Below, piece by piece: positions 3,235 to 20,719 of a DNA stretch of 20,783 bases. The translations under genes and the position numbers were made by a program. Under the pieces are notes generated by a model that searched no databases, was not told the origin of the DNA, and worked only from the letters and a program-made list of their open reading frames with translations. Origin of the DNA: a virus; the UHGV virus genome UHGV-0270338; one strand, written 5' to 3'. Within the stretch, counting starts at the first letter, position 1. Every line of letters begins with the position of its first letter.

Positions 3235-3237
3235 GGA

Positions 3238-4258: not shown

Positions 4259-4622
4259 ATGGCTAGCGAACGCAGTACTGATGTGCAGGCATTTATCGGG
4301 GAGCTGGACGGCGGCGTATTTGAAACCAAAAATCGGCGCAGTTCTCAGTGAAGTCGCTTCCGGTGTGATGAACACGAAAACCAAAGGTAAGGTCTCGCTC
4401 AACCTAGAAATCGAACCGTTTGATGAGAACCGAGTGAAAATCAAACACAAACTCTCATATGTTCGCCCGACTAACCGCGGGAAAATTTCCGAAGAAGACA
4501 CCACCGAAACGCCGATGTATGTCAATCGCGGTGGTCGCCTGACTATTCTGCAGGAAGACCAGGGACAGTTGCTGACTCTTGCCGGTGAACCTGACGGAAA
4601 ACTCCGCGCAGCAGGTCGTTAA
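4259..4622 (+). pseudogene. yfdP: yfdP-like gene interrupted by a frameshift in an A5 tract
   Basis: ATG at 4259 with strong SD (gaggag) opens a frame that stops after 30 codons; the 4281..4622 ORF continues in the adjacent frame; deleting one A from aaaaa (4328..4332) fuses them into about 120 aa. Confidence 0.45.
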
Positions 4623-4687
4623 TATCGTTTTTAATTAACTGATTATTTATCTCATCACTGAATATCTTTATATAGTGAGGACTTATT

Positions 4688-5512: not shown

Positions 5513-5639
5513 TTTCATTACTGCAAATGCCCCTGCGGGGGCATTTATGGAAACGTAATTTACTCAATAATCGCCGGATGGTGAGGGATTCTTTTTACCA
5601 GAATTCAGCGCGGTGCAGCGCATATACGTGGAGAACAAA

Positions 5640-6176
5640 ATGTCATTTATTAAAACTTTTTCCGGGAAGCATTTTTATTATGACAGGATAAATAAAGACG
5701 ACATCGATATTAACGATATCGCGGTTTCCCTTTCAAATATCTGTCGCTTTGCCGGTCATCTTTCGCACTTCTACAGCGTCGCCCAACATGCGGTTCTTTG
5801 CAGCCAGCTGGTGCCGCAGGAATTTGCTTTTGAAGCGTTAATGCATGATGCAACAGAAGCGTATTGCCAGGACATTCCCGCACCACTGAAACGCCTTCTT
5901 CCTGACTATAAACAAATGGAAGAAAAAATAGACGCCGTAATCCGTGAGAAATACGGGTTACCCCCAGTTATGAGTACGCCCGTGAAATATGCCGATCTCA
6001 TCATGCTGGCAACCGAACGCCGCGATCTCGGGCTTGATGATGGCTCTTTCTGGCCTGTACTGGAAGGTATCCCGGCAACAGAGATGTTCAACGTGATTCC
6101 ACTGGCACCGGGCCATGCCTACGGGATGTTTATGGAACGCTTTAACGAGTTATCGGAGTTACGCAAATGCGCATGA
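5640..6176 (+). CDS. yfdR: YfdR-like HD-domain phosphohydrolase (5'-deoxynucleotidase family)
   Basis: Start moved to ATG 5640 (SD ggaga 5 nt upstream) giving 178 aa; HD-type motifs (HFYSVAQHA, LMHDATEAY). Confidence 0.65.
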   Translation: MSFIKTFSGKHFYYDRINKDDIDINDIAVSLSNICRFAGHLSHFYSVAQHAVLCSQLVPQEFAFEALMHDATEAYCQDIPAPLKRLLPDYKQMEEKIDAVIREKYGLPPVMSTPVKYADLIMLATERRDLGLDDGSFWPVLEGIPATEMFNVIPLAPGHAYGMFMERFNELSELRKCA

Positions 6177-6529
6177 ATGTTTTCGAAATGGAAGGGTTTC
6201 TTCGTGGGAGATGTGTACCGCGAGATCTGAAAGTAAATGAAACAGATGCTGAATACCTGGTGCGTAAATTCGATGCGCTTGAAGCTAAATGTGCAGCACA
6301 GGAAAACAAAGTAATACCAGTGTCAACTGAACTGCCACCAGCAAATGAAAGTGTTTTGTTATTCGATGCTAACGGAGAAGGCTGGCTAATTGGCTGGCGT
6401 TCTCTCTGGTACACCTGGGGACAAAAAGAAACCGGAGAATGGCAGTGGACATTTCAGGTCGGGGACCTTGAAAACGTCAATATCACTCACTGGGCAGTAA
6501 TGCCAAAAGCACCGGAGGCTGGAGCATAA
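6167..6529 (+). CDS. yfdS: YfdS-like (DUF551) prophage protein
   Basis: 120 aa; synteny after yfdR-like; start overlaps yfdR stop. Confidence 0.5.
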   Translation: MRMNVFEMEGFLRGRCVPRDLKVNETDAEYLVRKFDALEAKCAAQENKVIPVSTELPPANESVLLFDANGEGWLIGWRSLWYTWGQKETGEWQWTFQVGDLENVNITHWAVMPKAPEAGA

Positions 6530-6834
6530 TGACCACTTTTACCGACAAAGAACTGATTAAAGAAATTAAAGAGCGTATCAGCAGCCTTGACGTGCGAGAC
6601 GATATTGAGCGCCGTGCTTATGAAATCGCACTCCTATCTCTGGAAGTAGAACCAGATGAACGCGAAGCTTATGAATTATTCATGGAAAAGCGTTTCGGTG
6701 ACTTAGTAGATCGTCGGAGAGCAAAAAACGGCAATAACGAATACATGGCATGGGATATGACTCTCGGTTGGATCGTCTGGCAGCAACGAGCTGGTATCCA
6801 TTTTTCAACAATGTCACAGCAAGAGGTGAAATAA
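6529..6834 (+). CDS. yfdT: YfdT-like prophage protein
   Basis: 101 aa; synteny; overlaps neighbours by 1 nt on each side. Confidence 0.45.
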   Translation: MTTFTDKELIKEIKERISSLDVRDDIERRAYEIALLSLEVEPDEREAYELFMEKRFGDLVDRRRAKNGNNEYMAWDMTLGWIVWQQRAGIHFSTMSQQEVK

Positions 6835-7184
6835 TGGAGCCATACAGCCTCACACTCGATGAGGCCTGTCATTTTCTCAAGATATCCAGACCGACTGCCA
6901 TTAACTGGATACGCACAGGGCGTCTTCAGGCAACACGCAAAGATCCCACTAAGAATAAATCTCCTTACCTCACAACACGACAAGCCTGCATTGCGGCTCT
7001 TCAGTCTCCGCTGCATACTGTCCAGGTGAGCGCGGGTGATGGCATAACAGAGGAAAGAAAATGTCACTCTTCCGCAGAGGTGAAATATGGTACGCCAGTT
7101 TCACATTGCCGAACGGTAAAAGATTTAAACAGTCTCTTGGAACAAAGGACAAAAGGCAGGCGACAGAACTCCATGACAAGCTAA
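6834..7184 (+). CDS. xis: Excisionase (Xis), P22-type
   Basis: 116 aa from ATG 6834 (SD gaggtg upstream; TAATG overlap with yfdT stop); HTH-like [26 protein letters not shown]; 3' end overlaps int start as in lambdoid int-xis modules. Confidence 0.6.
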
Positions 7185-8224
7185 AGGCTGAAGCATGGCG
7201 GGTCAGCAAACTTGGTGAAATACCTGATATAACGTTCGAGGAAGCGTGTGTCAGGTGGCTTGAAGAGAAAGCACATAAAAAATCACTGGACGATGACAAA
7301 AGCCGGATCGGATTCTGGCTTCAACATTTCGCAGGAATGCAACTAAGAGACATTACTGAATCAAAAATTTATTCAGCAATGCAGAAAATGACGAACCGGC
7401 GTCATGAGGAAAACTGGAAACTCAGGGCAGAAGCATGCAGAAAAAAAGGGAAACCTGTTCCAGAATACACGCCAAAACCAGCGTCCGTTGCAACGAAGGC
7501 TACGCATCTTTCATTTATAAAGGCCCTACTAAGAGCCGCAGAGCGTGAATGGAAAATGCTGGATAAGGCACCAATTATTAAAGTGCCTCAACCAAAGAAT
7601 AAACGGATCCGCTGGCTGGAGCCCCATGAAGCACAAAGGCTGATTGATGAATGTCCGGAGCCATTAAAGTCTGTTGTTGAATTTGCACTGGCAACAGGCT
7701 TAAGACGCTCGAACATCATCAACCTTGAATGGCAACAAATAGATATGCAGCGCCGGGTGGCATGGATAAACCCGGAAGAGAGTAAATCAAACCGCGCAAT
7801 TGGCGTTGCGCTGAATGATACTGCATGTCGCGTATTGAAAAAACAAATCGGGAATCATCACCGTTGGGTATTTGTGTACAAGGAAAGCTGTACCAAACCA
7901 GACGGAACGAAAGCGCCAACAGTAAGGAAGATGCGGTATGACGCAAACACAGCCTGGAAAGCGGCGCTGAGACGGGCTGGTATTGATGATTTCAGATTTC
8001 ACGACTTGAGACACACCTGGGCAAGTTGGCTGGTTCAAGCCGGAGTCCCGTTGTCAGTTTTACAGGAAATGGGAGGCTGGGAGTCTATCGAAATGGTTCG
8101 TCGATATGCTCACCTTGCACCTAATCACCTTACCGAACACGCACGGCAAATAGACTCGATCCTGAATCCATCGGTCCCAAATTTGTCCCAGTCAAGAAAT
8201 AAGGAAGGTACTAATGATGTGTAA
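7061..8224 (+). CDS. int: Tyrosine integrase, P22-family-like
   Basis: 387 aa; catalytic signature ATGLRRSN (R), FHDLRHTWA (HxxR), VRRYAHL (Y); stop codon 2 nt before the tRNA-Thr-derived att repeat. Confidence 0.85.
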
Positions 8225-8225: not shown

Positions 8226-8257
8226 TTATTGATTTTAATGGTGCCGATAATAGGAGT
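8226..8257. repeat. att repeat: displaced copy of the tRNA-Thr 3' end (19 nt) plus 11 nt of downstream flank
   Basis: ttattgatttt-aa-tggtgccgataataggagt matches 20628..20662 (ttattgatttt-cttga-tggtgccgataataggagt); the 19-nt part is the reverse complement of the tRNA 3' end ACTCCTATTATCGGCACCA. Confidence 0.85.
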
Positions 8258-8343
8258 AAAACACTCGATTAATCTCGTGTTAATGCCATCACCTACGACC
8301 ATTACTAATTGATTGAATCTTATAGAAAAAATTATCATTTTCT

Positions 8344-9678
8344 ATGCGTTACAATCAATTTTCACATTACAAACGCTCCGACACTTTAGCCGGGGAGTTT
8401 ATGAGATACAAGCCCAATCAATACATAATCTGTGATTCTTACGGTAACTACTATTTACGGATCACGCTGCCTGTGTATATGCAGCCCTTTTTTGAAGGAA
8501 AAAGGACGTTTGTCAGGAGTCTGCACACAAGTAATCTTCGTGTTGCACGTAGAAAGCGTGATCAGATTGCAGATGAATACCATTGCTTACGGGAGAGTGT
8601 TGCCCCTGTAAACAGCACAATAGAGAACACGCTGGAACTGTTACGCAGTAAGGCTAAATACGCCAAAACAGCTACCAGAATGCAAGATACAGCGTCTTCG
8701 TGTCCGTCATTGCTTAAAATTCTTGAAATCTACCTGACAATTAACAGCACGAAGAAGAAGCCAGCCACTTTAGCTAAGGCAAGAAAAGCGGTAGAGATGT
8801 TTCTCTCCTACCGTAAAAAGCCTGATATTGCATTGCAAGATGTAAGCCGCACCACTGTTACAGGCTGGATTGAACACATGCAAAAAACCCTTTCACAACA
8901 ATCAATTGCAAATTATATCAGCCCAATGGCCCAGCTATGGGAGTTAGCTTCATCACGTTACCACGATGCGCCAGAAAGGGCGCTCTCCCCCTGGCGAGGG
9001 CATAGGCTTGATGTGGCACAAAGTAGAGAGAGCTACGAGGCATTTTCTAACAAAGAGCTATTGCAGGTGTTGCAAGTATTTTCCGGTAATTCAGCAGAAA
9101 ACAAAGAAATGATGGCTTTGTGTCTTATCGGTGCTTATACAGGTATGCGGATCAATGAGATAGCAAGTCTCACAATAGACGATGTGAAAGAGATCGAAGG
9201 TGTGCTGTGTTTTGAAATCACACAGGGAAAAACGAAAGCTGCGGCGCGTGTTGTGCCTGTACATAGCCTTATCACTCCGTTGGTGTTGTCGCTGCGTGAA
9301 AAGCCTCATAATGGCTTTTTGTTCTATCACGCCAGCATCACAGAACGTGCTGATGGTAAACGTTCCACGTGGCACACGCAGAGATTTACAAGAGCTAAAC
9401 GAAAGGCTTTAGGGGAAAAGGGAACAGAAAGGAAAGTGTTTCATTCTCTGAGACACGGAGTAGCACAGCTTCTTGATCGAAATCAAATTCCAGAAGACAG
9501 GATCGCCCTTCTCCTGGGCCATACACGCGGCAATACAGAGACATTCCGCACATATAGCAAGAATGCAGCTTCTCCAGTAGAGCTTAAAAAATATATTGAG
9601 CTTCTACGCTACCCTGAAATAGAGAAAGGCTTATCAATCAATAAAAAATCAAATTTAAGGCGTAAAACAACGCCATAG
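8344..9678 (+). CDS. Tyrosine integrase of the second element
   Basis: 444 aa (alternative start ATG 8401 with ggggag SD gives 425 aa); motifs TGMRINEIASL (R), FHSLRHGVAQLL (HxxR), LLGHTRGN...FRTYSK (H, Y); unrelated in sequence to the upstream int. Confidence 0.8.
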   Translation: MRYNQFSHYKRSDTLAGEFMRYKPNQYIICDSYGNYYLRITLPVYMQPFFEGKRTFVRSLHTSNLRVARRKRDQIADEYHCLRESVAPVNSTIENTLELLRSKAKYAKTATRMQDTASSCPSLLKILEIYLTINSTKKKPATLAKARKAVEMFLSYRKKPDIALQDVSRTTVTGWIEHMQKTLSQQSIANYISPMAQLWELASSRYHDAPERALSPWRGHRLDVAQSRESYEAFSNKELLQVLQVFSGNSAENKEMMALCLIGAYTGMRINEIASLTIDDVKEIEGVLCFEITQGKTKAAARVVPVHSLITPLVLSLREKPHNGFLFYHASITERADGKRSTWHTQRFTRAKRKALGEKGTERKVFHSLRHGVAQLLDRNQIPEDRIALLLGHTRGNTETFRTYSKNAASPVELKKYIELLRYPEIEKGLSINKKSNLRRKTTP

Positions 9679-9686
9679 ACGCAATA

Positions 9687-9720
9687 AAGAGGCTTCAACA
9701 TAGATTGGTAGCCTCTTTTA
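9687..9720. terminator. Bidirectional hairpin terminator between int2 and the convergent minus-strand operon
   Basis: aagaggct ... agcctctt 8-bp stem followed by tttta on plus strand and preceded by aataaa. Confidence 0.45.
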
Positions 9721-9759
9721 TAATTACATCGTTACAGAGCGTTTTAGAGGCATTTACGG

Positions 9760-10473
9760 CTATTCCTGTTTAAAGGCAGGAGTAATAGTGTCTTCACCTT
9801 CACTACTTGATTTTTCAGTGTTAACACGTTTTTTCATATTAGCCCCGATGTTCTTAGATGGCTGTGTTTTGATAGCTACAGTGTTTACAGTGCCATAAGA
9901 AACGAGCCTGATCTGCTCAAAGCTAAGATCAAATACTAGGGATTCGCTTGCCTCTTCTGTGTATTCGATGCCTGTTAAAACAACGTTCTCAAAAGTTTTA
10001 TTTTCTGTAACAAGAAGAAAAGGCTGTCTACTGTCCATAATCTGATTCAGATAATCAATCGCTAATGATCTTCTGTTCCCGTTCACCCCTGCACTCTTTA
10101 ACAAGCCAGGATCGCTTTTAATCGGTGTTTCAGTGATCCTTCCTTTAAGAGAAAACTTATTGTTTTTAATTTGAACGTGATCCGATACATTAGCACCATT
10201 TTCTACGGGGTAGCTTGTAACATCTGCCGAACGTCTCACGTTCACATCGTCAACACTGTCAAAGGCCAGTGCCATATAATTTTCATAAACGTCATTACCA
10301 GAAGATGCCAGCCCACTGGTAACAATAGCAAATCCATTTTCTCCTTTTGTTTTATTGGCTTTGCTATTTTCGTTTTTTGTAGAGTTTATATCTTGTTCTG
10401 CTTTGTAAACAGCCTGAACGTGTTGTTCTGGAGTATTTGCTGCACGTATGGTTAAAATCCCGGCGGTCGCCAT
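9760..10473 (-). CDS. Hypothetical protein, last gene of the structural-like operon
   Basis: 237 aa ORF, Ser/Thr/Asn-rich; no recognisable motif. Confidence 0.45.
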   Translation of the reverse strand: MATAGILTIRAANTPEQHVQAVYKAEQDINSTKNENSKANKTKGENGFAIVTSGLASSGNDVYENYMALAFDSVDDVNVRRSADVTSYPVENGANVSDHVQIKNNKFSLKGRITETPIKSDPGLLKSAGVNGNRRSLAIDYLNQIMDSRQPFLLVTENKTFENVVLTGIEYTEEASESLVFDLSFEQIRLVSYGTVNTVAIKTQPSKNIGANMKKRVNTEKSSSEGEDTITPAFKQE

Positions 10474-10506
10474 AATAATAATTTCCTTGTAATGTTATGG
10501 CGGGAA

Positions 10507-12345
10507 TTACCCGCCGTTGGATTGTCCTGATAAGCTGGTTAATGTTAATGATTTCAAGAAGCTATCCCGACTTGCTCTCGCTGTAAAATCCACATAATCG
10601 CTTAATCTGGATGTGTCAGAATTAATAGTAAGAGGAACTTCTGTTACCACTTCAAATGTAGGATTCAGATTAAACACAGGAGATAAATTATAAGCCGGAG
10701 TTGTCATTGCAAGATTATTTAAAGCACCCTGTTTGAGATTGGTTATCGGTGCTTCGCTGACTGACATTTTTACATCTGACACAGAAGAAGCATTATCATC
10801 GAAAAGCAATCCCTTAAGAGTGTTAAAGAAAGAATGACTATTATCAGGTGTAGTTGTTGCAGTGCCAGCGCCTTTATATTGGTCAGGAACGAGCTTAGAA
10901 AGATGCTGTTTCATCCCTTCATTGCTTAATGGCGGTGCATCTCCCATATTTTTCTGAATAGCATCTGTCTTATCATCATTACGATTAAACCAGTTTACAA
11001 TCTTCATAATGGCTTCAAAAAGACTTCCTGACGCTTCTCCTAGCCTTGTAAAATACGGAGTGAGATTAGAAAGGTTTTTCATAAACTCTTCCGTTACTTT
11101 TGGATCGAGAGATTTCATAAAGCCGTCTACGAATGCTACTTGTCTTGCATCAGAAAGCTGTGAAAGCTGTCTGTTTAGTTCTCTGAATTTAACAATAGAG
11201 TCTTGCTGTGTTTCTGTTAGCCATTTTCCAGAGGCTTTTTGCTGATTAATACTTTCTTGTACATCTTTAACGGAACGTTGCCAATATTTTGACGTAAGCA
11301 TCAAATCATCGCCCAGGTCTTCTAAACGTTGTCCAATTTGGGAGTCTGAAAACCCTTTTTTCATCATTCCATTAACAGCCTTAGAAATTAATCCGGCTGG
11401 ATTATCAGCAAATTTTTTAAGGTCGCTCTTGTTAATAACACCGATGTTTAGAAGTTCATTAATAGCGTTATCACCGCCTTTCCATTCGCCGCCTTTACCA
11501 GTTTTTTTATCGACTACATATTCAGCTTCACTATAGGATTTTGCGGCACGTTCCCTAACATCTTTCATCTGATCCAGGTATTTCCTAGCCCCTTGATCAC
11601 CCATCATAGAGTCAACGCCGTTTCTATAGGCCCATTCTGTAATGTTGTACATCTGGTTAACGTCTACACCGCCAAGCCTTGCACGTTGAATTAGCTCACC
11701 TTGTGTCTCTGCGTTAGCGAAACTGTTACTAACAAACTCCGACGCTTTACTAACAGCCATCACGCCAGCAGCCGCTGTAGCGCCTCCAAATAACAGAGCA
11801 CCCATCGTGGCGGAATTCCCTGATCCTCCTCCCTTAACGGGGGCTAATTGAGCTTTTCTGTTGCCATTAATCTTACGTTGTTGCTGTTGTAGGCGTTTCA
11901 TCTGACTATTCATACGTGCAAGCGAGATAGCCCCTTGCTCATATTGTTTTGCTATCTCTCTAGCCTGTGCAATAGCTTTGTATTGTTCCGCTACAGAGAG
12001 GCGGTGCATTGCACTGATAGAGCTTGACACATCAAGGAGTTTTAATTCTGCTTTCTCTTTACGTGCTGCTATTTGTTGCTGTTGCCTTGCCTGTGCTCTT
12101 GCTGCGGCAGCTTGTGCTCTTTGATTTTGTTTTTCGGTTTTAGCTTTCTGTTGAGCAATCTTATCTACTTCACTTTGTGCTTTCTTATAGCCTTTAGTGA
12201 CATTATCAAACCTTAATTTAGCGGGCTTGATGTTTTCTGCGAATTCCTTTAAGCCTGTAATAGAGTCTTTCGCTTTTTTCAAGCTGTCTTTATCTACACT
12301 AAATGTTACTGTGTTCTTAATTTTAGAAGTGTTAATTTCTAACAT
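10507..12345 (-). CDS. Coiled-coil protein with Gly/Ala-rich hydrophobic segment (tape-measure-like or scaffold-like)
   Basis: 612 aa; N-terminal Q/A/K/R-rich helical region (AQAAAARAQARQQQQIAARKEKAELK), then GGGSGNSATMGALLFGGATAAAGVMAV; no Walker A or other catalytic motif seen. Confidence 0.5.
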   Translation of the reverse strand: MLEINTSKIKNTVTFSVDKDSLKKAKDSITGLKEFAENIKPAKLRFDNVTKGYKKAQSEVDKIAQQKAKTEKQNQRAQAAAARAQARQQQQIAARKEKAELKLLDVSSSISAMHRLSVAEQYKAIAQAREIAKQYEQGAISLARMNSQMKRLQQQQRKINGNRKAQLAPVKGGGSGNSATMGALLFGGATAAAGVMAVSKASEFVSNSFANAETQGELIQRARLGGVDVNQMYNITEWAYRNGVDSMMGDQGARKYLDQMKDVRERAAKSYSEAEYVVDKKTGKGGEWKGGDNAINELLNIGVINKSDLKKFADNPAGLISKAVNGMMKKGFSDSQIGQRLEDLGDDLMLTSKYWQRSVKDVQESINQQKASGKWLTETQQDSIVKFRELNRQLSQLSDARQVAFVDGFMKSLDPKVTEEFMKNLSNLTPYFTRLGEASGSLFEAIMKIVNWFNRNDDKTDAIQKNMGDAPPLSNEGMKQHLSKLVPDQYKGAGTATTTPDNSHSFFNTLKGLLFDDNASSVSDVKMSVSEAPITNLKQGALNNLAMTTPAYNLSPVFNLNPTFEVVTEVPLTINSDTSRLSDYVDFTARASRDSFLKSLTLTSLSGQSNGG

Positions 12346-12359
12346 TTAAAATCCCCTTA

Positions 12360-12563
12360 TTAATCATTTTTACCACCTTCTTTACTTAAGAAATGGTGTA
12401 GAGCCTGATCAATACTCTCGTTTAGTCTGAACATACGGGCTTTTACTCCTTCATATGGAACATCTAAGAGAGAACATAGATATTTCAGATTTAACAAGCC
12501 TCTTGAATCATTAGCATCTAAATGTACGTGTACACCATTTTTTGATTTCAAAATCACTTCCAT
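12360..12563 (-). CDS. Hypothetical small protein
   Basis: 67 aa; SD gaggtga upstream of ATG; directly follows an internal terminator. Confidence 0.4.
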   Translation of the reverse strand: MEVILKSKNGVHVHLDANDSRGLLNLKYLCSLLDVPYEGVKARMFRLNESIDQALHHFLSKEGGKND

Positions 12564-12587
12564 ATTTTAATCACCTCTCAAAATTTA

Positions 12588-12632
12588 AAAAATAAATAAA
12601 AAAAAGGCGAAGCGTGAATACACGCCACGCCT
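12588..12632 (-). terminator. Rho-independent terminator immediately after the capsid-like gene
   Basis: Minus-strand RNA forms aggcguggcgug-uauu-cacgcuucgccu followed by an 8-U run (plus-strand A-run 12590..12604). Confidence 0.6.
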
Positions 12633-12649
12633 CTATTACACGTTAAATA

Positions 12650-13678
12650 TTATTTAACAGTGATTTGAACGGAGAAGCCTACACCGTGGTTTACAACCAT
12701 CTGGCTATTCTCTGTAACAACGTTAACAGCATCACCACGAGAAGATTCATAGCTATAGCTGTACACCTCAGCAGGAGCGGCATTAATCAGTTCAAAGGTG
12801 CTGGAAGCAGCCCCGTAGATGTTCTGATATACATTAGAGCCTTTAGCAAACTTCGGAACCGCTACAGCGTCTGCGGTCATATGTGCAAGGTGTAGCGGAT
12901 CTACCAGTTTAATAACATCAATGTTAGTTCCTGGAATAGTGAACGCTGTCACCCCCGGTAGCAGGTCACGACGCTGGTACACAACATTTCCCTCTTCCAG
13001 TGGGCTTACATACTGGAATGCGTTTGCCATACCCGCAGAGAATCGAATTGCAGAGAAGGCTTCCGGCTTACAGAAAACAACAATACGCTCTACAGCAGCC
13101 GCCTGGCTTTGTGCTTTCTCGATAATGTCAGTAGCAATCTGATCAAATTCTTTAAAAATCTTCGTGGTGTCAGTGCTGGAGGCGTTAACAGTGGCTTTCA
13201 TAGGTGTCACATTAAACAGCTTGCCCCACTCGATAAGAACATCATCAGTTTTCGGGGTGTAGGTGCGACCACTAAACAGAGAAGCAGCCAATACGCTCTC
13301 TTTTGTACGCTGATACGCTACGTGGTGTTTAGCAACATAGTCAGCATAGATATCAGTGAGTGTTTCCTGAAAATCAGTGCCAGGCTTACGCTTGCCTTGC
13401 ACGTCCTGCGGTTTGATCAGGTCTTGCCTTAAAAAGTACGGGATTTCAATAAGATATTCTTTACCTTGTTCTCGCTTAGTAACGTTGTGTTCAGAAGAGA
13501 AACGAGAGGTTTCTTTGTTGAACAGAGATTCGTTGCTTTCGACAAGCTGGGAAACAGCTACTTTATGAGATGTAACCCCTACAGAATCCGTAAAATCAAG
13601 AGTAGAGAGCAGATAGTTTCTAGTGCTATGAGCCTGGAAAAGCGGAGCTAAATCAACGTAATCATTACCTAGAATCAT
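12650..13678 (-). CDS. Putative HK97-fold major capsid-like protein
   Basis: 342 aa; segment RIVVFCKPEAFSAI...MANAFQYVSPLEEGN resembles, from memory, the conserved region of podovirus T7 gp10-type capsid proteins; followed by a strong terminator as is typical for a major structural gene; no signal peptide. Confidence 0.45.
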   Translation of the reverse strand: MILGNDYVDLAPLFQAHSTRNYLLSTLDFTDSVGVTSHKVAVSQLVESNESLFNKETSRFSSEHNVTKREQGKEYLIEIPYFLRQDLIKPQDVQGKRKPGTDFQETLTDIYADYVAKHHVAYQRTKESVLAASLFSGRTYTPKTDDVLIEWGKLFNVTPMKATVNASSTDTTKIFKEFDQIATDIIEKAQSQAAAVERIVVFCKPEAFSAIRFSAGMANAFQYVSPLEEGNVVYQRRDLLPGVTAFTIPGTNIDVIKLVDPLHLAHMTADAVAVPKFAKGSNVYQNIYGAASSTFELINAAPAEVYSYSYESSRGDAVNVVTENSQMVVNHGVGFSVQITVK

Positions 13679-13696
13679 TTATTATTATTCCTTTTA

Positions 13697-14059
13697 TTAA
13701 GAAGTGAAAACAGAGTGGAACCCTTCAAGCTGGAAGCCTTTTTTAATTAATGCTGTTTTTGCTGCTTCACTTACAGCATTCAGCGCATCAGCTTTGATGC
13801 AGACAAGGCCAGCATTGCTACGTAGCACATCTACAGGCTTGTTGTCTCCAGCCGTTAAAAACTCACTCATAACAACATAGATATCATCTCCTGATACATA
13901 TTTAGCGCCAGTGCTGGTGATCAAGTCGCCGCATTCAACATCAGCAGGAAGAGAAGCAAAAACCTTGCTTTCTACAGAGGCAAACGGATCAGTACAATAA
14001 CTTACAATATCTGTGAAAGTCTTTCGAACTGGAAATAGAGTGTCTAAATCAATAATCAT
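13697..14059 (-). CDS. Hypothetical protein (possible head accessory, decoration or scaffold protein)
   Basis: 120 aa; immediately upstream of the capsid-like gene, start overlaps stop of preceding ORF. Confidence 0.35.
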   Translation of the reverse strand: MIIDLDTLFPVRKTFTDIVSYCTDPFASVESKVFASLPADVECGDLITSTGAKYVSGDDIYVVMSEFLTAGDNKPVDVLRSNAGLVCIKADALNAVSEAAKTALIKKGFQLEGFHSVFTS

Positions 14060-14268
14060 TTAGTAATCTCCTTAGCTTTTAATTTGATTAATTCATTAAG
14101 GGAAGGTGTAGACGGAGAAGAAGGAGAAAAATATTTTTCAACACAACGTTCCACTTCTTCGACAGAACACCCAGCGTATTTAGCTACCATTTCGGTAATT
14201 TGTGGATTGATCTTTAGCATTTCATCGCGATACTTGATGATTTGCTCTTTATCATTTAAAAACAACAT
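14056..14268 (-). CDS. Hypothetical small protein, first gene of operon B
   Basis: 70 aa; translationally coupled (ATGA overlap) with the next gene. Confidence 0.35.
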   Translation of the reverse strand: MLFLNDKEQIIKYRDEMLKINPQITEMVAKYAGCSVEEVERCVEKYFSPSSPSTPSLNELIKLKAKEITK

Positions 14269-14303
14269 TTATATAAACCTTGTTACCTTGTTTAAAGTAA
14301 GAA

Positions 14304-14323
14304 ATACAACTTTTAAGTTGTAT
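14304..14323. promoter_or_regulatory. Perfect palindrome ATACAACTT-TT-AAGTTGTAT, candidate operator at the operon B promoter
   Basis: 9-bp inverted repeat with 2-bp spacer between the upstream terminator and the first ORF of operon B. Confidence 0.4.
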
Positions 14324-14335
14324 AACGGGCAAAAT

Positions 14336-14365
14336 AAAAGGCAGCATTTAGAGCCGCCTTTTATT
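14336..14365. terminator. Bidirectional hairpin terminator separating operon A from operon B
   Basis: aaaaggcagc-atttaga-gccgcctttt, flanked by A-run and T-run. Confidence 0.5.
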
Positions 14366-14392
14366 AACTTGTACCTATGTAATTACCCTATG

Positions 14393-14420
14393 TTATGCAT
14401 ACTCCAAGATGTATGCATAA
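14393..14420. promoter_or_regulatory. Two copies of palindromic octamer TATGCATA (ttatgcatac ... gtatgcataa), candidate operator
   Basis: Inverted pair of 10-mers, each containing a self-complementary TATGCATA. Confidence 0.35.
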
Positions 14421-14611
14421 CAAAGGAAAAAAGAGGTAATAATGACACTTAAGGAGGAGGAGAAGCGGGGAGCGGAGATTTTACTCCCCTTTAACGACAA
14501 GAAGAATTTTTAATATCGAACCAATAAAGGAAAAATAATCACCCTATATAATTATATTAACATACAATAGATGAAATGTCAAGATATTTTACAACTTTTT
14601 TGTTGCTTTTT

Positions 14612-14974
14612 TTATTCTTCTGTGATAACGGCTAAGCGTTGAGCGAGTTCGATAAGGCCATCTCCCACATAGCGAACATCAGATTCAATATCTTCTATCC
14701 AGTTTGATAGCTCCCATATCTGATCGGCTGTCAGGTATGCGTTCTCACGCTTACAGAGCATCTCTACACGCTTAGAGAGGTGCTCAAAGGCATTTACAGC
14801 TAAATCCCAGTGTTTAAACGCCTCATTAAGTGCCGCTGGCGTATTTTCTTTATATGCATCAAGTTCAGCGCGGTTTAAAGGCAGGAGGTAATCATCCTCA
14901 TAATAATTAATTAGTGAGTAAATTGTATCATACGTGTTTTTGTTCATATTAAAAGTCTCCATAGTGATCATCAT
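14612..14974 (-). CDS. Hypothetical helical protein
   Basis: 120 aa ORF; likely true start at internal ATG (MNKNTYD..., ggag 9 nt upstream). Confidence 0.4.
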   Translation of the reverse strand: MMITMETFNMNKNTYDTIYSLINYYEDDYLLPLNRAELDAYKENTPAALNEAFKHWDLAVNAFEHLSKRVEMLCKRENAYLTADQIWELSNWIEDIESDVRYVGDGLIELAQRLAVITEE

Positions 14975-15356
14975 TATCTAAATGGAATTCAGGAACTAAA
15001 TTATTTAGGCCATTGGTGGCGAGATAACCAACGTAGTGGTTATAGTCTTCAAATCCTAAAATCTGGTATTTGCGTAAATCAGAGCTGTCAACGATATACT
15101 CTTTTCTTTTTCTAGGTTTCCAGAACACGCCAGGTGTTGAAGATAAGATTTCTTGTAATGCGATATATTCATCTCCACAAGGCACAGAGGGAGAATGTTC
15201 TATGATCTCTGTTTTCCATTCGCCAGGGGCGCTATTTTGCTTGGAGAGCGTAACTAGCTCTTTAAAGTCTTTGCGTCTTAGAATAGATTTAGGTTTACTT
15301 AGAAGAGAAGCTGAATCACCGATTTTCTTAACAACGTTGTTTTTTCTTTTTGCCAT
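14949..15356 (-). CDS. Hypothetical protein with basic N-terminus and acidic C-terminus
   Basis: 135 aa; MAKRKNNVVKK N-terminus; ends ...HLDNDDHYGDF. Confidence 0.4.
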   Translation of the reverse strand: MAKRKNNVVKKIGDSASLLSKPKSILRRKDFKELVTLSKQNSAPGEWKTEIIEHSPSVPCGDEYIALQEILSSTPGVFWKPRKRKEYIVDSSDLRKYQILGFEDYNHYVGYLATNGLNNLVPEFHLDNDDHYGDF

Positions 15357-15485
15357 TTATTTTTCCTTTTCTTTTAAAGGAAAACACCCCGAAGTATGTT
15401 TCTAACGTGAGAAAGAACAATAACCAATACATAGCTACTATCATAATAATGTTTTCCTTTTATATTTTAATTACATAGAGAGATT

Positions 15486-15761
15486 TTAGAGAGTGGAATA
15501 GATGAATTCTACTTTACCCAGTCTTTTGAGATTGAATGTAGAGAAAGATAATTCTTTAATCTCTATAACACCGAAATTTGATAGCTGTCTAAGCCAGAAT
15601 TTTAAACCATCTTCAGAGCAAGCTGCTCGATGTAACACATCGCTATATTTTAGCGGTGTTGGCTTTCCTTTATAGAGGTAAGCAAGTGTCTCGTAGATGC
15701 GTTTTCCTGTGTCATTACACTGAATTCTGTCTACTTGATTTTTTACTAAATATTGAATCAT
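15486..15761 (-). CDS. Hypothetical small protein
   Basis: 91 aa ORF in operon A. Confidence 0.4.
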   Translation of the reverse strand: MIQYLVKNQVDRIQCNDTGKRIYETLAYLYKGKPTPLKYSDVLHRAACSEDGLKFWLRQLSNFGVIEIKELSFSTFNLKRLGKVEFIYSTL

Positions 15762-15772
15762 AACCCTCCTTA

Positions 15773-16429
15773 TTAAAATGGAATATCAAAGTCATCATAC
15801 ACATTTGGGTAATGCTTAGAAAAATATGCCTCAATACCATTTGGTAGCTTTAACCTGTGCTTATAGGCTAACGATGTTGCAAATTCTATAAATGATGCTC
15901 CTCCTGTTCTTTTGTCTTTCTTCTGGATGATAAGAGAGGCAAAATTCTCTAACACATCCTCCTCATTATCATTAGCTACCTTTTCACTTGATGAAACAGG
16001 TGTTTCTTCCGTCTCCCACGGTAAAGGCGTATCCCAATCATCATCAAGAACATCAAAAGAAGACTCTTTATTATCTTCCGTAGGGGGAAGCTGATCAGGA
16101 ACAGCTTTAACAGTAGCTTCTTGTTGTGTCTGGGCTTCTTGTCTAGCTTCTTCTTGTGGAATATCTACCACTTGATAGACATTAGAACTTCCTGGTCGTG
16201 CATCTTTTATAATTAATCCCATTTCGAGCAATTTCTTAACCCTTTCCTCTGCTGCTCTTGGTGTTATGCCAAAAACATCGCCTATCTTAGCGTAAGAGGG
16301 AAATGCACGATCAAACCCTTTCAGATAGCAGTAAAGGTTTTTAGCACTATCTGTAAATTTATGCCCGTTTACTTGGCTTATTTTTAGAATCCACATAGGA
16401 ACTTTTACAAATTGTTCTTCATTAATCAT
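15773..16429 (-). CDS. Winged-helix DNA-binding protein with acidic linker and SSB-C-terminal-tip-like tail (candidate replication initiator / host replisome recruiter)
   Basis: 218 aa; N-terminal HTH-like segment (FPSYAKIGDVFGITPRAAEERVKKLLEMGLI); long D/E/Q-rich linker; C-terminus ...YDDFDIPF, close to the E. coli SSB tip DDDIPF. Confidence 0.55.
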   Translation of the reverse strand: MINEEQFVKVPMWILKISQVNGHKFTDSAKNLYCYLKGFDRAFPSYAKIGDVFGITPRAAEERVKKLLEMGLIIKDARPGSSNVYQVVDIPQEEARQEAQTQQEATVKAVPDQLPPTEDNKESSFDVLDDDWDTPLPWETEETPVSSSEKVANDNEEDVLENFASLIIQKKDKRTGGASFIEFATSLAYKHRLKLPNGIEAYFSKHYPNVYDDFDIPF

Positions 16430-16480
16430 TAAAAATCTCCTTATAAATCACGCTTAATGCGCTACTAAAGTGAATGAGGA

Positions 16481-16648
16481 TCACTTACCCTTTTTTTGTT
16501 TGATGTTCTCTGCTGCTTCAGTAATGATTTCTAACATCAAATCACTGACCATAATTTGCCTTTTCTTGGCTTCAGCAAATAAAACCTTGAAGATTTCAGG
16601 GTCAACGTGTAGGTAAGTGCGCGGAATTGGTTTCTTAGTTTCGCTCAT
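16481..16648 (-). CDS. Ribbon-helix-helix (RHH) DNA-binding protein
   Basis: 55 aa from ATG 16648 with excellent SD (aagaggaggag); beta-strand RTYLHV followed by two helices (PEIFKVLFAEAKKRQ, MVSDLMLEIITEA) typical of Arc/CopG/Omega fold. Confidence 0.55.
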   Translation of the reverse strand: MSETKKPIPRTYLHVDPEIFKVLFAEAKKRQIMVSDLMLEIITEAAENIKQKKGK

Positions 16649-16670
16649 AGTTTTCTCCTCCTCTTGTCTA

Positions 16671-16853
16671 TTATTCTTTCTCTGCTTCTTTCTTACGCAG
16701 TTCATCAATAATTTTCAGTGCATCGTCAAAACATTTTTCACGCTCTGGATAACCTCGACTCCTTGCCATATTACGGTTCATTACTACTTGGTGGCGTGTA
16801 AGCTCACCTTTTTTAAATGCCTGGACGACGTGCTCAGATGTAAACCATTTCAT
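16671..16853 (-). CDS. Small hypothetical protein, first gene of operon A (possible regulator or directionality factor)
   Basis: 60 aa; SD aaggag upstream; immediately upstream of the RHH gene. Confidence 0.4.
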   Translation of the reverse strand: MKWFTSEHVVQAFKKGELTRHQVVMNRNMARSRGYPEREKCFDDALKIIDELRKKEAEKE

Positions 16854-17616
16854 AAAAAACTCCTTATTCAGTTAAAAGAAATAAAACACCTTGCAAGCCT
16901 GACGGCTTCAAAGTGCATTGATTTTGATTATTTAGAGAAGAATGTTTTTCTGTCCCTCTAATACCTATTATTACATATAAAGAAACATTTGTCAATACCT
17001 TTTCATAAAAAATCTGATCTTTTTCATGCACTTACATTTTTTCTTAGCTATTCGTGCTCTTCTGTGTAGTGCTATTCTTCATTATCCGCTAAAACGCTCT
17101 AAAACGCGTTCTAACGAGATTTTGATAAAAGCAATACATTGCCTTATCTAATGGCTGTTTAGCTCGCCAGAGGCTTATTTAAGGGGCTTATTTTGTATTT
17201 GTTAGGTATATGAAAAGGTAATGGTAAATATAAAACAGAGAGTCACTTTATAAAACGCTCTGTAAAGACCTGTAGTGAGCTTATTATATGTAGGCAATGC
17301 GTTTCCATTCCCTACCCTGCTTAATGCTGTTAGAGAAGCATTTAGACCCCTTATTTTTAATTACCTAAAGTATCCTCTATACATCTCTGTTATGAAACAC
17401 CTCTGAATCCTTCATAAAACACATTATGACGCAAAGAACACTTTTCTAAGGTGATTCCCTTCCTGAACTCTGTTTCTTGCGTCAGAGAGCTACAGAGAGC
17501 TTATAAAGCTATTATTAATAATAAAGTAGATAAAGTAAGTAAGATAACTAAGATAGATAAGATTAATAAGATCAGAATTCTCTTTCGGTGTCGCCTCTGG
17601 CTTTTCCACCGAAAAC

Positions 17617-17740
17617 AATTACACGACTACAGAATGTGGAAGTGGAATTGTATTGAGGCTTAGTGAAATTACACGAGGAAAGCAGAGTGTAATTGAGCTT
17701 TAGCCGCTCTCTCTTCGAGTAATTACACAACTACAGAGAA
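17617..17740. repeat. Array of AATTACAC-containing repeats, including palindrome AATTACAC-N12-GTGTAATT (17667..17694)
   Basis: aattacacgactacaga (17617) and aattacacaactacaga (17721) are near-identical 17-mers; perfect 8-bp inverted repeat between them. Confidence 0.5.
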
Positions 17741-17995
17741 TAACGAGAGTTATTAAATGTAGGAGGGTAATTAAGAGTTAGAGAGAGTTAACACGTAAGC
17801 AATCAGTATGATTGGTTAGGTGATTACTCTTCTGCGCACAGCGCAATAGTATTTCTTCGTGGGCGTTACCGCCACGATAGTTACACGAAGAAAGTAACGC
17901 TTTGCTTTCGGTGTGAGCGGAACGGGCCAGCCAACGTAGCCCGAAAGGTAGCGGAGTAAGGCTGCTTGCCAGAGAGTGAAGCTAACGCCGGAAGG

Positions 17996-18180
17996 CAAAA
18001 GATCATATAAATAAATATATAATATTATAATTTAATAAGTAATTTAATAAATGATCTAATAGGTAACAGAATTCTGTGGGGGTGTCTAACAGAATTCTGT
18101 TAGGGTGGGGTAACAGAATTTTGTTAGGGTACAAATCTCTTTAAAAGTTAAGATTAACAGAATTCTGTGGGGGTAGCTCA
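17996..18180. promoter_or_regulatory. Origin-like region: roughly 65 bp of almost pure A/T followed by four iterons TAACAGAATT(C/T)TGTnnGGGT
   Basis: Iterons at 18064, 18087, 18111, 18155 (spacing 23, 24, 44 bp); each contains the palindrome ACAGAATTCTGT; no ORF support. Confidence 0.55.
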
Positions 18181-18224
18181 CAGTGACCTACCGTTACTAC
18201 CAATCATCACATAGCACTCACTCT

Positions 18225-18700
18225 GTGTAATGCCTTTCTATGTGTGTGCCATAATCCCCTATATTCCCTGTGTAAATCATAGAATAATGCTCTCTATTCC
18301 CTGTGTAATTCCCTACTAAAAAATCCAATGAAAAATGGCTTCAAAGTGCAATGTTAGCTTTCTTCACTTTTACATCACTTTCGCAAAGCCTTGTGTAATG
18401 CGGTTTACAGAGCACCATCAGAAATTGTTGGCTAAAAATTGTTCTGCTTGTTTCTGAACGAGTTTTCTCGTTTGTGCAAATTTTAAAATTTATTTTGTTT
18501 TTACAGCCTTATTTCGTGTAATGCGTGGCATAGCAAGCCCTTTTCTTGTGTTGTCAAGACATTTGGCAACGTTCAAACATCTGTTTAGAAATGCCAAATT
18601 GTTGATCTAACAAATAAACCTGTATAAACAGAACACCATTTAATCTATCCCCCTGTGTATCCATTAGGCATACCAAATGAATACATCTAAATCGTGTAAT
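18225..18700. repeat. Dispersed same-orientation GTGTAAT heptad motifs (about 6 copies) upstream of the serine recombinase gene
   Basis: Copies near 18225, 18269, 18302, 18392, 18517, 18694; two share the longer context tattccctgtgtaa(a)t; opposite orientation to the ATTACAC copies left of the iterons. Confidence 0.45.
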
Positions 18701-18793
18701 ATTCCGTACCCATAAGGCTTGAAACAGACCAAATGAATACGATATACTCATTTGCATTGAAGTAGTGCCAAATCGATACATTAAGAGGATTTT

Positions 18794-19333
18794 ATGAGCA
18801 ATATCGGCTATAAGCGTGTGAGCACTGTAGATCAGAACACTGATCGCCAGCTTGCAGGAGTAACGCTTGATAAAGTCTTTGAAGATAAGCTGTCAGGTAA
18901 AGACACTAACCGTCCAGGATTGCAGGCGTGTTTATCCTATCTGAGAGAAGGCGACACCTTACACGTGCACTCTCTCGACCGTTTAGGACGTAACACCTTA
19001 GACATCCTTGCTTTAGTTGAACAACTTAATAATCGAGGTGTGATTGTTCGATTTCACAAAGAAGGAATCATTGCAGACATTACAAGCGCGATGGGAAAAA
19101 TGATGCTTACTATGTTGTCGGCAGTTGCAACGTGTGAACGTGAACTGATGTTAGAGCGTAAACGAGAAGCGCAAGCCGTCAATCCTACAAAGCGTGGTAA
19201 AGGTAAAGCAGTAGATAGGGAAGGTATAAAGAAAGCCCTTTCCGCTGGCGTGTCAGTGCGTAAAACCGCCGAGAGCTTTAATGTTGCTCCTTCAACGGTG
19301 CAACGTATCAAGAAGGAAGAAGAGGAGGCGTAA
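18794..19333 (+). CDS. Small serine recombinase (resolvase/invertase family)
   Basis: 179 aa; N-terminal YKRVSTVDQNTDRQ with catalytic Ser; GKMMLTMLSAVATCERE resolvase core; C-terminal HTH (VSVRKTAESFNVAPSTVQRIKK). Confidence 0.8.
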   Translation: MSNIGYKRVSTVDQNTDRQLAGVTLDKVFEDKLSGKDTNRPGLQACLSYLREGDTLHVHSLDRLGRNTLDILALVEQLNNRGVIVRFHKEGIIADITSAMGKMMLTMLSAVATCERELMLERKREAQAVNPTKRGKGKAVDREGIKKALSAGVSVRKTAESFNVAPSTVQRIKKEEEEA

Positions 19334-19349
19334 TGCCTCCTTGATATTT
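19324..19349 (+). terminator. Hairpin terminator overlapping the recombinase stop codon
   Basis: ggaggc-gtaat-gcctcc followed by ttgatattt. Confidence 0.4.
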
Positions 19350-19660
19350 GGGGATTCTGGATTTTCCAGATCGGGGGGCGCTGATCTTCGCGTTAAACAT
19401 TGATCACGTTTGCGCCGATTTCAGATAAAAAGGCAGCTATTAAGCAATACGTAACTTTTACAATTAGTGAAATTATCTAAAACACAAGTTATATAGATGA
19501 GAAAATGAAATATTATCTTGAACAAATCAAACAAAACAACACATCATCTTGTTGACACCATGCAAAGTGAATAGTAAGCTATTATATGTGAAAATTTGCA
19601 CATTGCATGCAATAAAAAATAAATGATACCTTGTTGTTGTTAAATCAATAGGGGGTATCT

Positions 19661-19819
19661 ATGCGCTTTATCTTATCCATTTTAAAAACCTGCAGAACCA
19701 CAATTACTTTAGCTGTAATTGTTACCATCATATACCTCATCTATTTTACCCCTCGAGATAAAATCGATTCACTAGCGATCATCGTTCATGCAATGGCTAC
19801 ATTAACTAAAAAACTTTAA
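19661..19819 (+). CDS. Small hydrophobic single-TM peptide (candidate type I toxin-like or membrane peptide)
   Basis: 52 aa MRFILSILKTCRTTITLAVIVTIIYLIYFTPRDKIDSLAIIVHAMATLTKKL; SD ggggg 5 nt upstream; below the 60-aa cutoff of the ORF track. Confidence 0.4.
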   Translation: MRFILSILKTCRTTITLAVIVTIIYLIYFTPRDKIDSLAIIVHAMATLTKKL

Positions 19820-19885
19820 TAATTTCACTATCAGGCGCACAAACACATCTTTGATTGCTGGATGTGTTATGCGCCTACTGGTGAT

Positions 19886-20038
19886 TCAATCCTTAAGCCA
19901 TTTCAACTCACTAAGGAGTTTTCTTTCTTCGTTCTCTCGCTGTTTACGCTCTAGCCAGGCTTTTCCCTCTGGCGTAGACAGGAACTTACGAGCGTGAATC
20001 TTGCGGTTATTACGTTTTATAGCTGCAATGTTTTTCAT
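19886..20038 (-). CDS. Small basic protein, convergent with the hydrophobic peptide gene
   Basis: 51 aa MKNIAAIKRNNRKIHARKFLSTPEGKAWLERKQRENEERKLLSELKWLKD; SD agagg 7 nt upstream of ATG. Confidence 0.3.
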   Translation of the reverse strand: MKNIAAIKRNNRKIHARKFLSTPEGKAWLERKQRENEERKLLSELKWLKD

Positions 20039-20627
20039 CGTGTTGCCTCTGTATTCATATGAAAATTAACAAGTTACATACTACACAGGGAGACTACGCA
20101 TAAAACACAATACAAGTAAAGATACATTTTCAAGACAATAGGAGCCATAAAGCGCCTTTGATGGTTATACCAAAAAATAAGCGCCGTAGGCGTATCCACT
20201 AAAAGGGCTTTTTCACAAAAGCTATGAAGTCTTAGCAGTTCTTCTCTTATCAGGCACCCGTTGTACTCCGGTGGACGAAACCGTGCTAGAGCTTGATTCT
20301 TTCCCGATCAAGTTAGGTTTTGAAGAGGTGGGCTTTAATCCACTATTGCACTTAAAACTCTTCCCATCATTTAGCCTGTTTATCCTCTGCAACGTCTCAC
20401 GACGTGTGGCATCATTGGACACCGCGCCAGGTGTGGAACATCTTGCTAAGAGTTTTGGTAGAAGGTTTAGAGACGGTGGCACGTCTTCCAGCTTCAAAGG
20501 AACTTGTTACGAGGTTGAGCCTGGGAACTACTCGCCCATACGTGTTACACTACCAAAGCCCATAACAACGTATAGGCGTTTGTAAGTGATAACAGAAGAT
20601 ACAATTTCTTAGAGAAGTTAAGCTAAG

Positions 20628-20662
20628 TTATTGATTTTCTTGATGGTGCCGATAATAGGAGT
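20628..20662. repeat. att repeat at the intact tRNA-Thr 3' end (right boundary of the second element)
   Basis: Matches 8226..8257 apart from a 2 vs 5 nt spacer difference. Confidence 0.85.
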
Positions 20663-20719
20663 CGAACCTACGACCTTCGCATTACGAATGCGCTGCTCTA
20701 CCAACTGAGCTATATCGGC
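20644..20719 (-). tRNA. thrW: tRNA-Thr (anticodon CGU)
   Basis: Reverse complement reads GCCGATATAGCTCAGTTGGTAGAGCAGCGCATTCGTAATGCGAAGGTCGTAGGTTCGACTCCTATTATCGGCACCA: 76 nt, cloverleaf-compatible, anticodon loop CGT, encoded CCA. Confidence 0.9.

Follow-up and report, generated by a model that had tools for sequence, protein, structure and literature searches.

A large conserved folded element beside the putative replication origin of a phage-satellite-like island in Escherichia coli

The viral genome UHGV-0270338, a stretch of 20,783 nucleotides (nt) referred to here as the window, contains at positions 16860-18790 a 1.9 kb gap, with a replication operon read leftward on one side and a recombinase gene read rightward on the other, and the question raised by this locus is what such a long non-coding region does for the element that carries it. 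An earlier note, made from the letters of the window, had described the gap as a gene-free regulatory hub and had singled out a GC-rich structured patch at about 17840-18000 as a candidate non-coding RNA. Judged from sequence comparison, an integrated phage-satellite-like replicon of Escherichia coli has its replication origin and control region in this gap, and a conserved folded element of about 414 nt (17583-17996, + strand) has the GC-rich patch as its 3' domain.

A coding function of the gap was ruled out, since all five open reading frames (ORFs) that are mechanically delimited within it are interrupted by a frameshift or stop codon in most distinct homologous copies. The ORF at 17816-17998 (- strand) is intact in 4 of 20 copies, and the ORF at 17451-17663 (+ strand) is intact in 2 of 24. 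Of 720 E. coli records in RefSeq that match the gap, nearly all are without annotation there. The description of the gap as gene-free was therefore borne out, and the term regulatory hub also proved apt for a non-coding control stretch located between two divergent transcription units. The GC content is 0.515 at 17800-17999 and 0.30-0.41 on either side, in agreement with the earlier description of a GC-richer patch in an AT-rich context. Of 5426 complete E. coli genomes, 719 (about 13%) contain portions of the non-coding region and 438 (8%) the GC patch itself. The patch is 95-99% identical across 423 genomes, and indels of 1 nt occur within it among close relatives. Related islands for comparison were gathered from E. 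coli genomes (L001-L011), from other genera (L002 and L003), from IMG/VR and, by means of the capsid protein, from metagenomes. A search of genome contigs with the replication initiator (Rep) returned two loci only, a search of viral contigs with the capsid protein of L004 gave no match, and a motif search of IMG/VR gave 175 matches, of which ~150 were chance matches in GC-rich genomes.

The assignment as an origin is based on the part of the gap that lies immediately to the right of the folded element. An AT-rich, GATC-containing stretch at 17998-18063, presumed to be the DNA unwinding element, is found in the same arrangement in every subtype and is followed by four iterons with internal dyad symmetry (18064-18183), whose core ACAGAATTCTGT is located at 18066, 18089, 18113, and 18157. 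The GC content at 18000-18199 is 0.305, and the iteron count was reached by 0 of 100 shuffles. The repeat family that occupies the iteron position differs among the islands (examples are ACAGAATTCTGT, TTGATAGGGGTA, CGGGTTTTTCCC, ACATCATTTTGATGT, and GTGTGACATAACG), and at least six such families can be distinguished, each of which tracks one type of Rep N-terminal part. Reps with 86-93% identity in their N-terminal parts share iterons despite different C-terminal parts, and the reverse is also true. Because the iteron family co-varies with the N-terminal domain of Rep, the iterons would be the initiator-binding sites and the stretch would be the origin. In those sequence-level features that could be checked, the region corresponds to a lambda-type iteron origin. 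The link to replication proposed in the earlier note was correct in that the patch adjoins the iterons and the AT-rich region; the origin itself, with its iterons and AT-rich stretch, had been overlooked.

Several long hairpin arms make up the folded element together with a GCGC-NNN-GCGC hairpin, a stem or three-way junction, and an irregular 60-nt arm (Pa/Pb/Pc) that follows an invariant TGAGCGG motif (17914-20). All of its pairs were verified in the window, where 17 of the 17 helices listed are perfectly paired. On the + strand, the 5' part contains P0 (17583-90/17607-14), P1a (17615-20/17646-51), P3 (17657-60/17702-05, with an inner helix at 17667-74/17687-94), a long arm P4/P2 (17707-14/17780-87, 17720-26/17767-73, and 17731-35/17758-62) with a tip helix at 17739-44/17749-54 closed by a GAGA loop, P5 (17800-05/17809-14), and H1 (17833-37/17841-45). 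The 3' half of the element (17850-18002), which corresponds to the GC patch and directly adjoins the AT-rich stretch on the left, is matched by a covariance model, R1, with 56.7 bits (E=4.9e-11). It contains a stem at 17855-61/17884-90 that encloses GGCG/CGCC (17862-65/17870-73) and, after the invariant motif, Pa (17925-27/17968-70), Pb (17928-32/17960-64), Pc (17939-41/17947-49), and Pd (17987-89/17994-96), the last with a GGAA loop. Most of the hairpins have 3-nt loops. An alignment of all variants shows that the element is modular, with a size of 370-500 nt. Compared with shuffled sequences, the segment 17800-18010 folds on the + strand with z=-3.1, and the whole element (17583-17996) with z=-8.5 when RNA parameters are used and z=-9.0 with DNA parameters. 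Folding of the patch at 17840-18000 is thus real, but the element is ~2.5 times larger than had been proposed, and its 5' 60% had been missed. The inverted repeats that were pointed out within the patch (tcgtgggcg/cgccacga, gttac/gtaac, ctttcgg/ccgaaag, and cgggc/gcccg) are all present in the sequence. The hairpin at 17855-17890, including GGCG/CGCC, is conserved among homologues, whereas the ctttcgg/ccgaaag pairing is confined to the subtype of the window, and cgggc/gcccg competes with a better-supported, covarying long-range helix, GGC-CAGCC/GGCTG-CTT-GCC (Pa/Pb).

The main support for the structure comes from the comparison of islands. The GC patch is kept beside the AT-rich stretch whatever the type of Rep and iteron, and this 3' domain is 88-95% identical between islands that have 20%-identical capsids, unrelated Reps, and a tyrosine instead of a serine recombinase. 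Sub-domains of the element have been swapped between lineages, with replacements that preserve the pairing. The stem of the three-way junction is formed by GTGCAA/TTGCAC or GTGCC/GGCAC, the first junction hairpin by CCGT/ACGG, TCGT/ACGA, TGAC/GTCA, or GGCG/CGCC, and the second by TGGC/GCCA, GGGC/GCCC, or AGGC/GCCT. The same holds for Pb (CAGCC/GGCTG, TGTCC/GGACA, or TGACC/GGTCA), the arm tip (GATAAC/GTTATC or AATAAC/GTTATT), and the outer arm stem (CTCTCTCT/AGAGAGAG or CTCTACCT/AGGTAGAG). When RNAalifold was applied to a plain MAFFT alignment of 10 sequences, the same helices were recovered as in the hand-drawn structure. In the 10-sequence alignment 93.2% of the cells are paired (30-46% with slid partners), both-side changes are present in 7 of 25 pairs, and the covariation score was reached by no shuffle. 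Covariance model R1, built from this alignment, identified 46 further copies besides that of the window, and wherever the layout of a locus was examined, the matching strand was the one reading toward the iterons. Among 36 distinct sequences in a model-based alignment, 95.7% of the cells are paired (26-42% with slid partners), and 17 of 25 pairs show compensatory changes; these sequences represent perhaps six to eight lineages, their alignment is fitted to the model, and subtypes B and E are too divergent for it. Since MAFFT alignments A4 and A5 shift one subtype by a column, counting was done on A3 and on the model-based A6. Polymorphisms among close copies are located in loops and linkers. 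These comparisons indicate that the folded structure is real and is maintained by compensatory substitutions. The earlier note had made its proposal depend on conserved pairing in homologous elements, and such conservation is what the compensatory changes point to.

Several copies of the element also differ in other respects. Two similar arms in 17615-17790, each containing AATTACAC...ACTACAGA, have recombined in some genomes; in L002 the two arms are merged into one, and in L196 the arm tips are exchanged. Around 17874, the copy in the window and the copy in E. coli CH4804 read cgccacg where most copies read cgccaacg, so that one A is missing in the linker of the 17855-17890 hairpin. Just upstream of the element, at 17494-17569, there is an AT-rich, imperfectly repetitive stretch of taag/ataag units, which is present in subtype A only and varies in length between copies, with extra units in L196.

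Two further questions are which strand is functional and whether it acts as RNA or as DNA. Structure prediction on both strands, as had been suggested, gave lower free energy for the + strand with RNA parameters (-157.8 kcal/mol, compared with -124.8 kcal/mol for the - strand) and also with DNA parameters (-81.7 and -66.1, respectively). Four tandem G-A/A-G mismatches are located inside regular helices on the + strand only, with pyrimidine mismatches on the - strand. The unpaired positions of the + strand are purine-rich (A 34%, G 28%, U 25%, and C 14%), and the remaining non-coding region is T-rich with more C than G. The lower energy, the tandem G-A mismatches and the purine-rich unpaired positions together argue for the + strand, read 5' to 3' toward the origin, as the functional single strand. 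The folding energies calculated with RNA and DNA parameters do not discriminate between the two kinds of nucleic acid. Natural structured RNAs usually contain several per cent of G-U pairs, far above the level of A-C. In the element, G-U accounts for 3 of 791 cells among the 36 distinct sequences, and 337 curated pairs contain 6 G-T and 3 A-C, which falls short of the excess of G-U over A-C that is expected of a structured RNA. The near-absence of G-U fits a folded single-stranded DNA at least as well as an RNA. Across the subtypes, the element was found to have neither a terminator nor a sigma-70 promoter conserved at a constant distance, and in the window there is no promoter-like site on the + strand upstream of it. 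No Rfam family matched the region, either in the window (at the gathering threshold and at E<=10) or in the nine subtypes (at the gathering threshold); the only Rfam matches are elsewhere and correspond to a tRNA and a TPP riboswitch. The covariance-model scan that had been recommended therefore gave no support to a known RNA family. Of the structured-RNA proposal, the conserved structure stands, but neither a Rfam match nor a conserved promoter or terminator was found, and G-U pairs are fewer than is usual. The suggestion of an antitoxin RNA found no support, as there is no toxin gene and no antisense partner.

The explanation that we favor, with a probability of about 0.4, is that the element is a folded single-stranded DNA initiation signal at which a host or helper helicase/primase is loaded or primes. 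Rep would open the AT-rich region, the opened + strand would fold into hairpins and three-way junctions, and the folded strand would become the loading or priming site for the helicase/primase system of the host or of a helper phage. Its mode of action would then be like that of a primosome assembly site or a G-site of an E. coli plasmid. The GC-rich patch would be the origin-proximal 3' domain of the module, which would supply the step for which the island has no recognizable loader gene and no DnaA box. The DNA reading is preferred because G-U pairs are nearly absent, most hairpins have loops of 3 nt, contact with the unwinding region is constant, and no conserved promoter or terminator was found; it is also preferred because no DnaA box is present in the region and no helicase-loader gene can be recognized on the island. 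A strand-specific folded structure that adjoins the unwinding region, as an initiation signal requires, is present, and this contact is seen in every subtype.

Several observations weigh against this explanation, in which the loading or priming activity is itself a prediction. Single-strand initiation signals are about 70-150 nt long, and the element, with ~400 nt, multi-way junctions, and conserved internal loops, would be several times larger than the known ones. Its GNRA-type loops (GAGA, and GGAA that is changed to GAAA in one copy), tandem G-A mismatches, and purine-rich unpaired positions are typical of structured RNAs. Rightward -10 candidates are found 150-200 nt upstream in some subtypes, and the argument from G-U pairs draws on few independent lineages. 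No blastn similarity was detected to phages (50,697 records, presumably including phiX174 and G4) or to plasmids (72,556 records). However, single-strand initiation signals are not known to us to share much sequence, which makes sequence comparison a weak measure here.

That the element is a structured RNA, acting either in cis or in trans, is quite possible, if short of probable. We hold only tentatively to the more specific proposal that the element would define a new structured RNA class, large (about 370-500 nt), multi-armed, and specific to an undescribed family of enterobacterial phage satellites with capsid-, tape-measure- and Dit-like genes of their own, and that it would be transcribed toward the origin and be needed for satellite replication or for exploitation of the helper phage. 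Of the two modes of action, an RNA made rightward into the AT-rich region, which would prime or activate the origin in cis in the manner of ColE1 RNA II or of lambda transcriptional activation, seems unlikely, although the direction in which the + strand reads, the end of the element, which in every subtype is only a few bases from the AT-rich stretch, and the RNA-like size, junctions, GNRA loops, and unpaired purines would all suit it. Lambda-type origins need transcription in cis, and weak (9/12) divergent rightward promoter candidates are located beside the leftward promoter in L004 and L003. It is countered by the lack of a terminator and of a promoter conserved at a fixed distance, the depletion of G-U pairs, and the lack of similarity to ColE1 or to any Rfam family; moreover, with Rep and iterons present, an RNA primer is not required. 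An RNA acting in trans, as an immunity factor like P4 CI or as a binder or titrator of a helper-phage or host protein (a new 'ornate' class), is rather improbable. It would account for a structure that is strongly conserved across islands with capsids that are only 20% identical, for repeated arm modules that resemble multiple protein-binding sites, and for the absence of a recognizable repressor gene from an island whose leftward promoter matches the consensus at 11/12 positions and is followed by a terminator-like leader. Nevertheless, an element so constantly linked to the unwinding region would be expected to act in cis, conserved complementarity to the leader was not detected, no match to C4/CI was obtained, and the objections from promoter, terminator, G-U content, and Rfam apply here as well.

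We give little credence to a double-stranded DNA feature, such as protein-binding inverted repeats or cruciforms, a helper-derived packaging (cos/pac) site, or recombination sites. In its favor, almost all pairs are of the Watson-Crick type, which allows either strand to fold, ATTACAC and GTGTAAT heptamers flank the origin in opposite orientation, and the identity of 88-95% in the 3' domain of islands with unrelated Reps is what would be expected of a site for a shared helper function. A protein that reads the sequence of a duplex would not, however, tolerate the replacement of whole sub-domains with preservation of pairing only, and the strand asymmetry seen in the tandem G-A mismatches, purine-rich loops, and free energy is also difficult to reconcile with this view. 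In addition, no similar sequence is found in any phage of the collection, the element stays while the recombinase switches between serine and tyrosine types, and no homologue was seen in inverted orientation. Copies of a helper-phage cos/pac site or of a plasmid element were rejected as candidates after megablast and blastn searches of the phage and plasmid collections gave no match. A decaying gene remnant or chance palindromes without function would agree with the overlap of mechanically delimited ORFs with the patch, but these ORFs are broken in most copies and the conserved patch contains 1-nt indels; together with the identity of 95-99% in 423 genomes, compensatory changes in 17 of 25 pairs, and z values down to -9, this makes an absence of function very improbable. 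The motif TGAGCG...CAGCCAACG had also given a lead to ERIC/IRU repeats, which was discarded, since a genuine ERIC copy shares only a 9-mer with the element.

The arms of the gap on either side of the element and origin contain further signals. On the left, a promoter-like site for the leftward replication operon (16967-16995, - strand) consists of TTGACA-17-AATAAT with TG upstream and 11/12 matches, and L004 and L136 have equivalent 11/12 sites in the corresponding position. In the window, the site is followed by a 13-base pair (bp) leader hairpin (with one G-U on the - strand) and then a U-run, UUUUAUUUCUUUU (16873-16916, - strand; z=-2.85), about 20 nt upstream of an AAGGAG ribosome-binding site; the ATG of the first gene is at 16853. 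The leader sequence is conserved in subtypes A, B, and E. Its resemblance to a terminator suggests that the operon may be held off by attenuation until an antitermination signal is received. Antisense control of the leader by a 17-nt repeat (16904 and 18337) was considered and rejected, as the repeat is not conserved in other subtypes. Boxes with the sequence TAAAACGCTCT are located on the + strand at 17090-17100 and 17251-17261, with a near copy at 17099-17108 (overall span 17089-17261), and the 11-mer TAAAACGCTCT is also present at 9736-9746 (- strand), immediately beyond the gene that ends the leftward operon. Related boxes with a consensus of about AAANCGCTCTRY are found on the same strand in all subtypes, and we take the core of the TAAAACGCTCT/AAANCGCTCTRY boxes to resemble boxA of the lambda nut site. 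The tandem ctaaaacgc repeat (17089-17107) and an inverted repeat (17427-17440/17471-17484) that were listed in the earlier note are both present.

On the right, GTGTAAT heptamers are found on the + strand at 18225, 18303, 18393, 18516, and 18694, and GTGTAAA at 18271 (18225-18700). Nine of the 11 heptamer copies in the window lie in 17618-17728 or 18225-18700, and a count of 11 was reached by no shuffle. The heptamers are oppositely oriented on the two sides of the origin: those on the left (ATTACAC) are helix strands of the folded element, whereas those on the right have no local partner. A 28-nt inverted repeat with 71% identity (17667-94/18283-310) brackets the origin. Two conserved blocks, 18454-18473 (ctgaacgagttttctcgttt) and 18562-18579 (tttggcaacgttcaaaca, within a nested palindrome), are located at 6590-6612 and 6864-6900 in L004 and are common to islands with unrelated Rep, iterons, and recombinase. 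Presumably, they are candidate binding sites for a shared host or helper factor. A promoter-like site for the recombinase gene (18719-18748, + strand) is flanked by CCAAATGAATAC repeats at 18669-84 and 18725-40.

The gap is located within an island of 12.4 kb (8238-20662) that is delimited by a 20-bp direct repeat, ATGGTGCCGATAATAGGAGT, at 8238-8257 and 20643-20662. The right copy of the repeat corresponds to the 3' end of tRNA-Thr, and the tRNA-Thr(CGU) gene is at 20644-20719 (- strand), near the end of the window. Related islands are integrated at tRNA-Thr, tRNA-Leu, or tRNA-Gly. The first gene of the island encodes a tyrosine integrase (8344-9678), and it is followed on the - strand by genes for a tail protein (Dit-like), a tape-measure-like protein, and a major capsid protein of the lambda E type, then by several small ORFs and the gene for Rep. 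Rep (15773-16429, - strand; 218 amino acids) is a lambda-O-like/HTH_36 replication initiator, with matches to HTH_36 and to phrog_270 and phrog_391 ('replication initiation O-like'). A small serine recombinase of the resolvase/invertase type (18794-19333, + strand; 179 amino acids) was identified on the right side of the gap by domain and PHROG matches. This position is occupied by a small serine recombinase in most islands and by a 186-residue tyrosine recombinase in the L004/L011/L136 type (7105-7665 in L004), a swap that fits an exchangeable function in multimer resolution. The possibility that the region is an invertible segment for the invertase-like recombinase was rejected, because it is never inverted among the homologues. 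The capsid protein is at most 22-26% identical to any phage capsid in the collection, the best matches being to large virulent myoviruses. No portal or terminase genes are found among the island genes (8238-20662), no protein repressor gene can be recognized on the island, and no description of this type of island was found in the literature searched. By its gene content, the island looks like a phage satellite of an undescribed kind. In E. coli CH4804 (L001, 7104-8332), the capsid gene of the island is interrupted by an IS3-family insertion, and the non-coding region is 99.3% identical to that of the window. To the left of the island, positions 1-8224 of the window contain genes for P2-like tail fibers and baseplate, further phage-like genes, and, at 7061-8224, another tyrosine integrase, which indicates that the tRNA-Thr site carries tandem mobile elements.

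When the region is compared with known systems, its origin part is closest to that of lambda, with an O-like initiator, four dyad-symmetric iterons beside an AT-rich stretch, and iteron specificity in the N-terminal part of the initiator. In contrast to lambda, the origin of the island is outside the initiator gene, upstream of the divergently transcribed operon, the island has no P-like loader gene, and the 414-nt folded module has no counterpart in lambda. For the folded module, phiX174-type primosome sites, the R1 G-site (G4-type), and RSF1010 ssiA/ssiB were compared by their general description. Single-strand initiation signals are strand-specific hairpins beside the iteron and AT-rich part of an origin and are independent of Rep specificity, and the element is like them in these respects; the difference is that it is several times larger and branched and has no sequence similarity to phages or plasmids. 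With ColE1 RNA II it has in common a long multi-hairpin strand with a 3' end at the start of the origin and a mosaic conservation of domains. However, sequence similarity is lacking, the island has Rep and iterons, no promoter or equivalent of RNA I was identified, and G-U is nearly absent. A likeness to the RNA II processing site by way of the motif ACGCCAGCAA was dismissed, because the motif is absent from ColE1 and no significant alignment was obtained. The intergenic region of filamentous phages (M13/f1) and the Frpo-type single-stranded DNA promoters of conjugative plasmids are also several hundred non-coding bases with conserved hairpins that function as one-strand DNA, as the element may do. 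They belong to replicons with an obligatory single-stranded stage, whereas the island has a HK97-class capsid gene and a theta-type initiator, and to our knowledge no obligatory single-stranded stage is known or implied for it. P4 CI RNA, P1 C4, ROOL, and GOLLD are non-coding RNAs of satellites or prophages, a class to which the element would belong only if it acted as RNA. P4 is in addition a ~12 kb island at a tRNA gene without a protein repressor. None of these RNAs gave a covariance-model match in the window or in eight other subtypes, and no complementarity to a target was found. By analogy, the module would work most like the single-strand initiation signals of plasmids or, alternatively, like the ColE1 primer RNA, and it shares sequence with neither. 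As far as the sequence collections go, the element is new: it is in no RNA family of Rfam and has no phage or plasmid homologue.

In summary, E. coli, the best-annotated bacterium, carries an unannotated 414-nt element for which the support from compensatory changes is among the clearest that can be obtained from natural variants. It is part of a family of 12 kb tRNA-integrated islands in which both the Rep/iteron cassette and the recombinase are exchangeable and which carry capsid, tape-measure, and Dit-like genes. The natural variants allow compensatory mutants to be designed, so the element offers a compact and testable handle on satellite replication. If it functions as RNA, it would represent a new class of large structured RNA in a model organism. 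If it functions as DNA, it would be a branched single-strand initiation signal of unusual size, and would reveal how a satellite that has no more than an O-like initiator brings a helicase and a primase to its origin.

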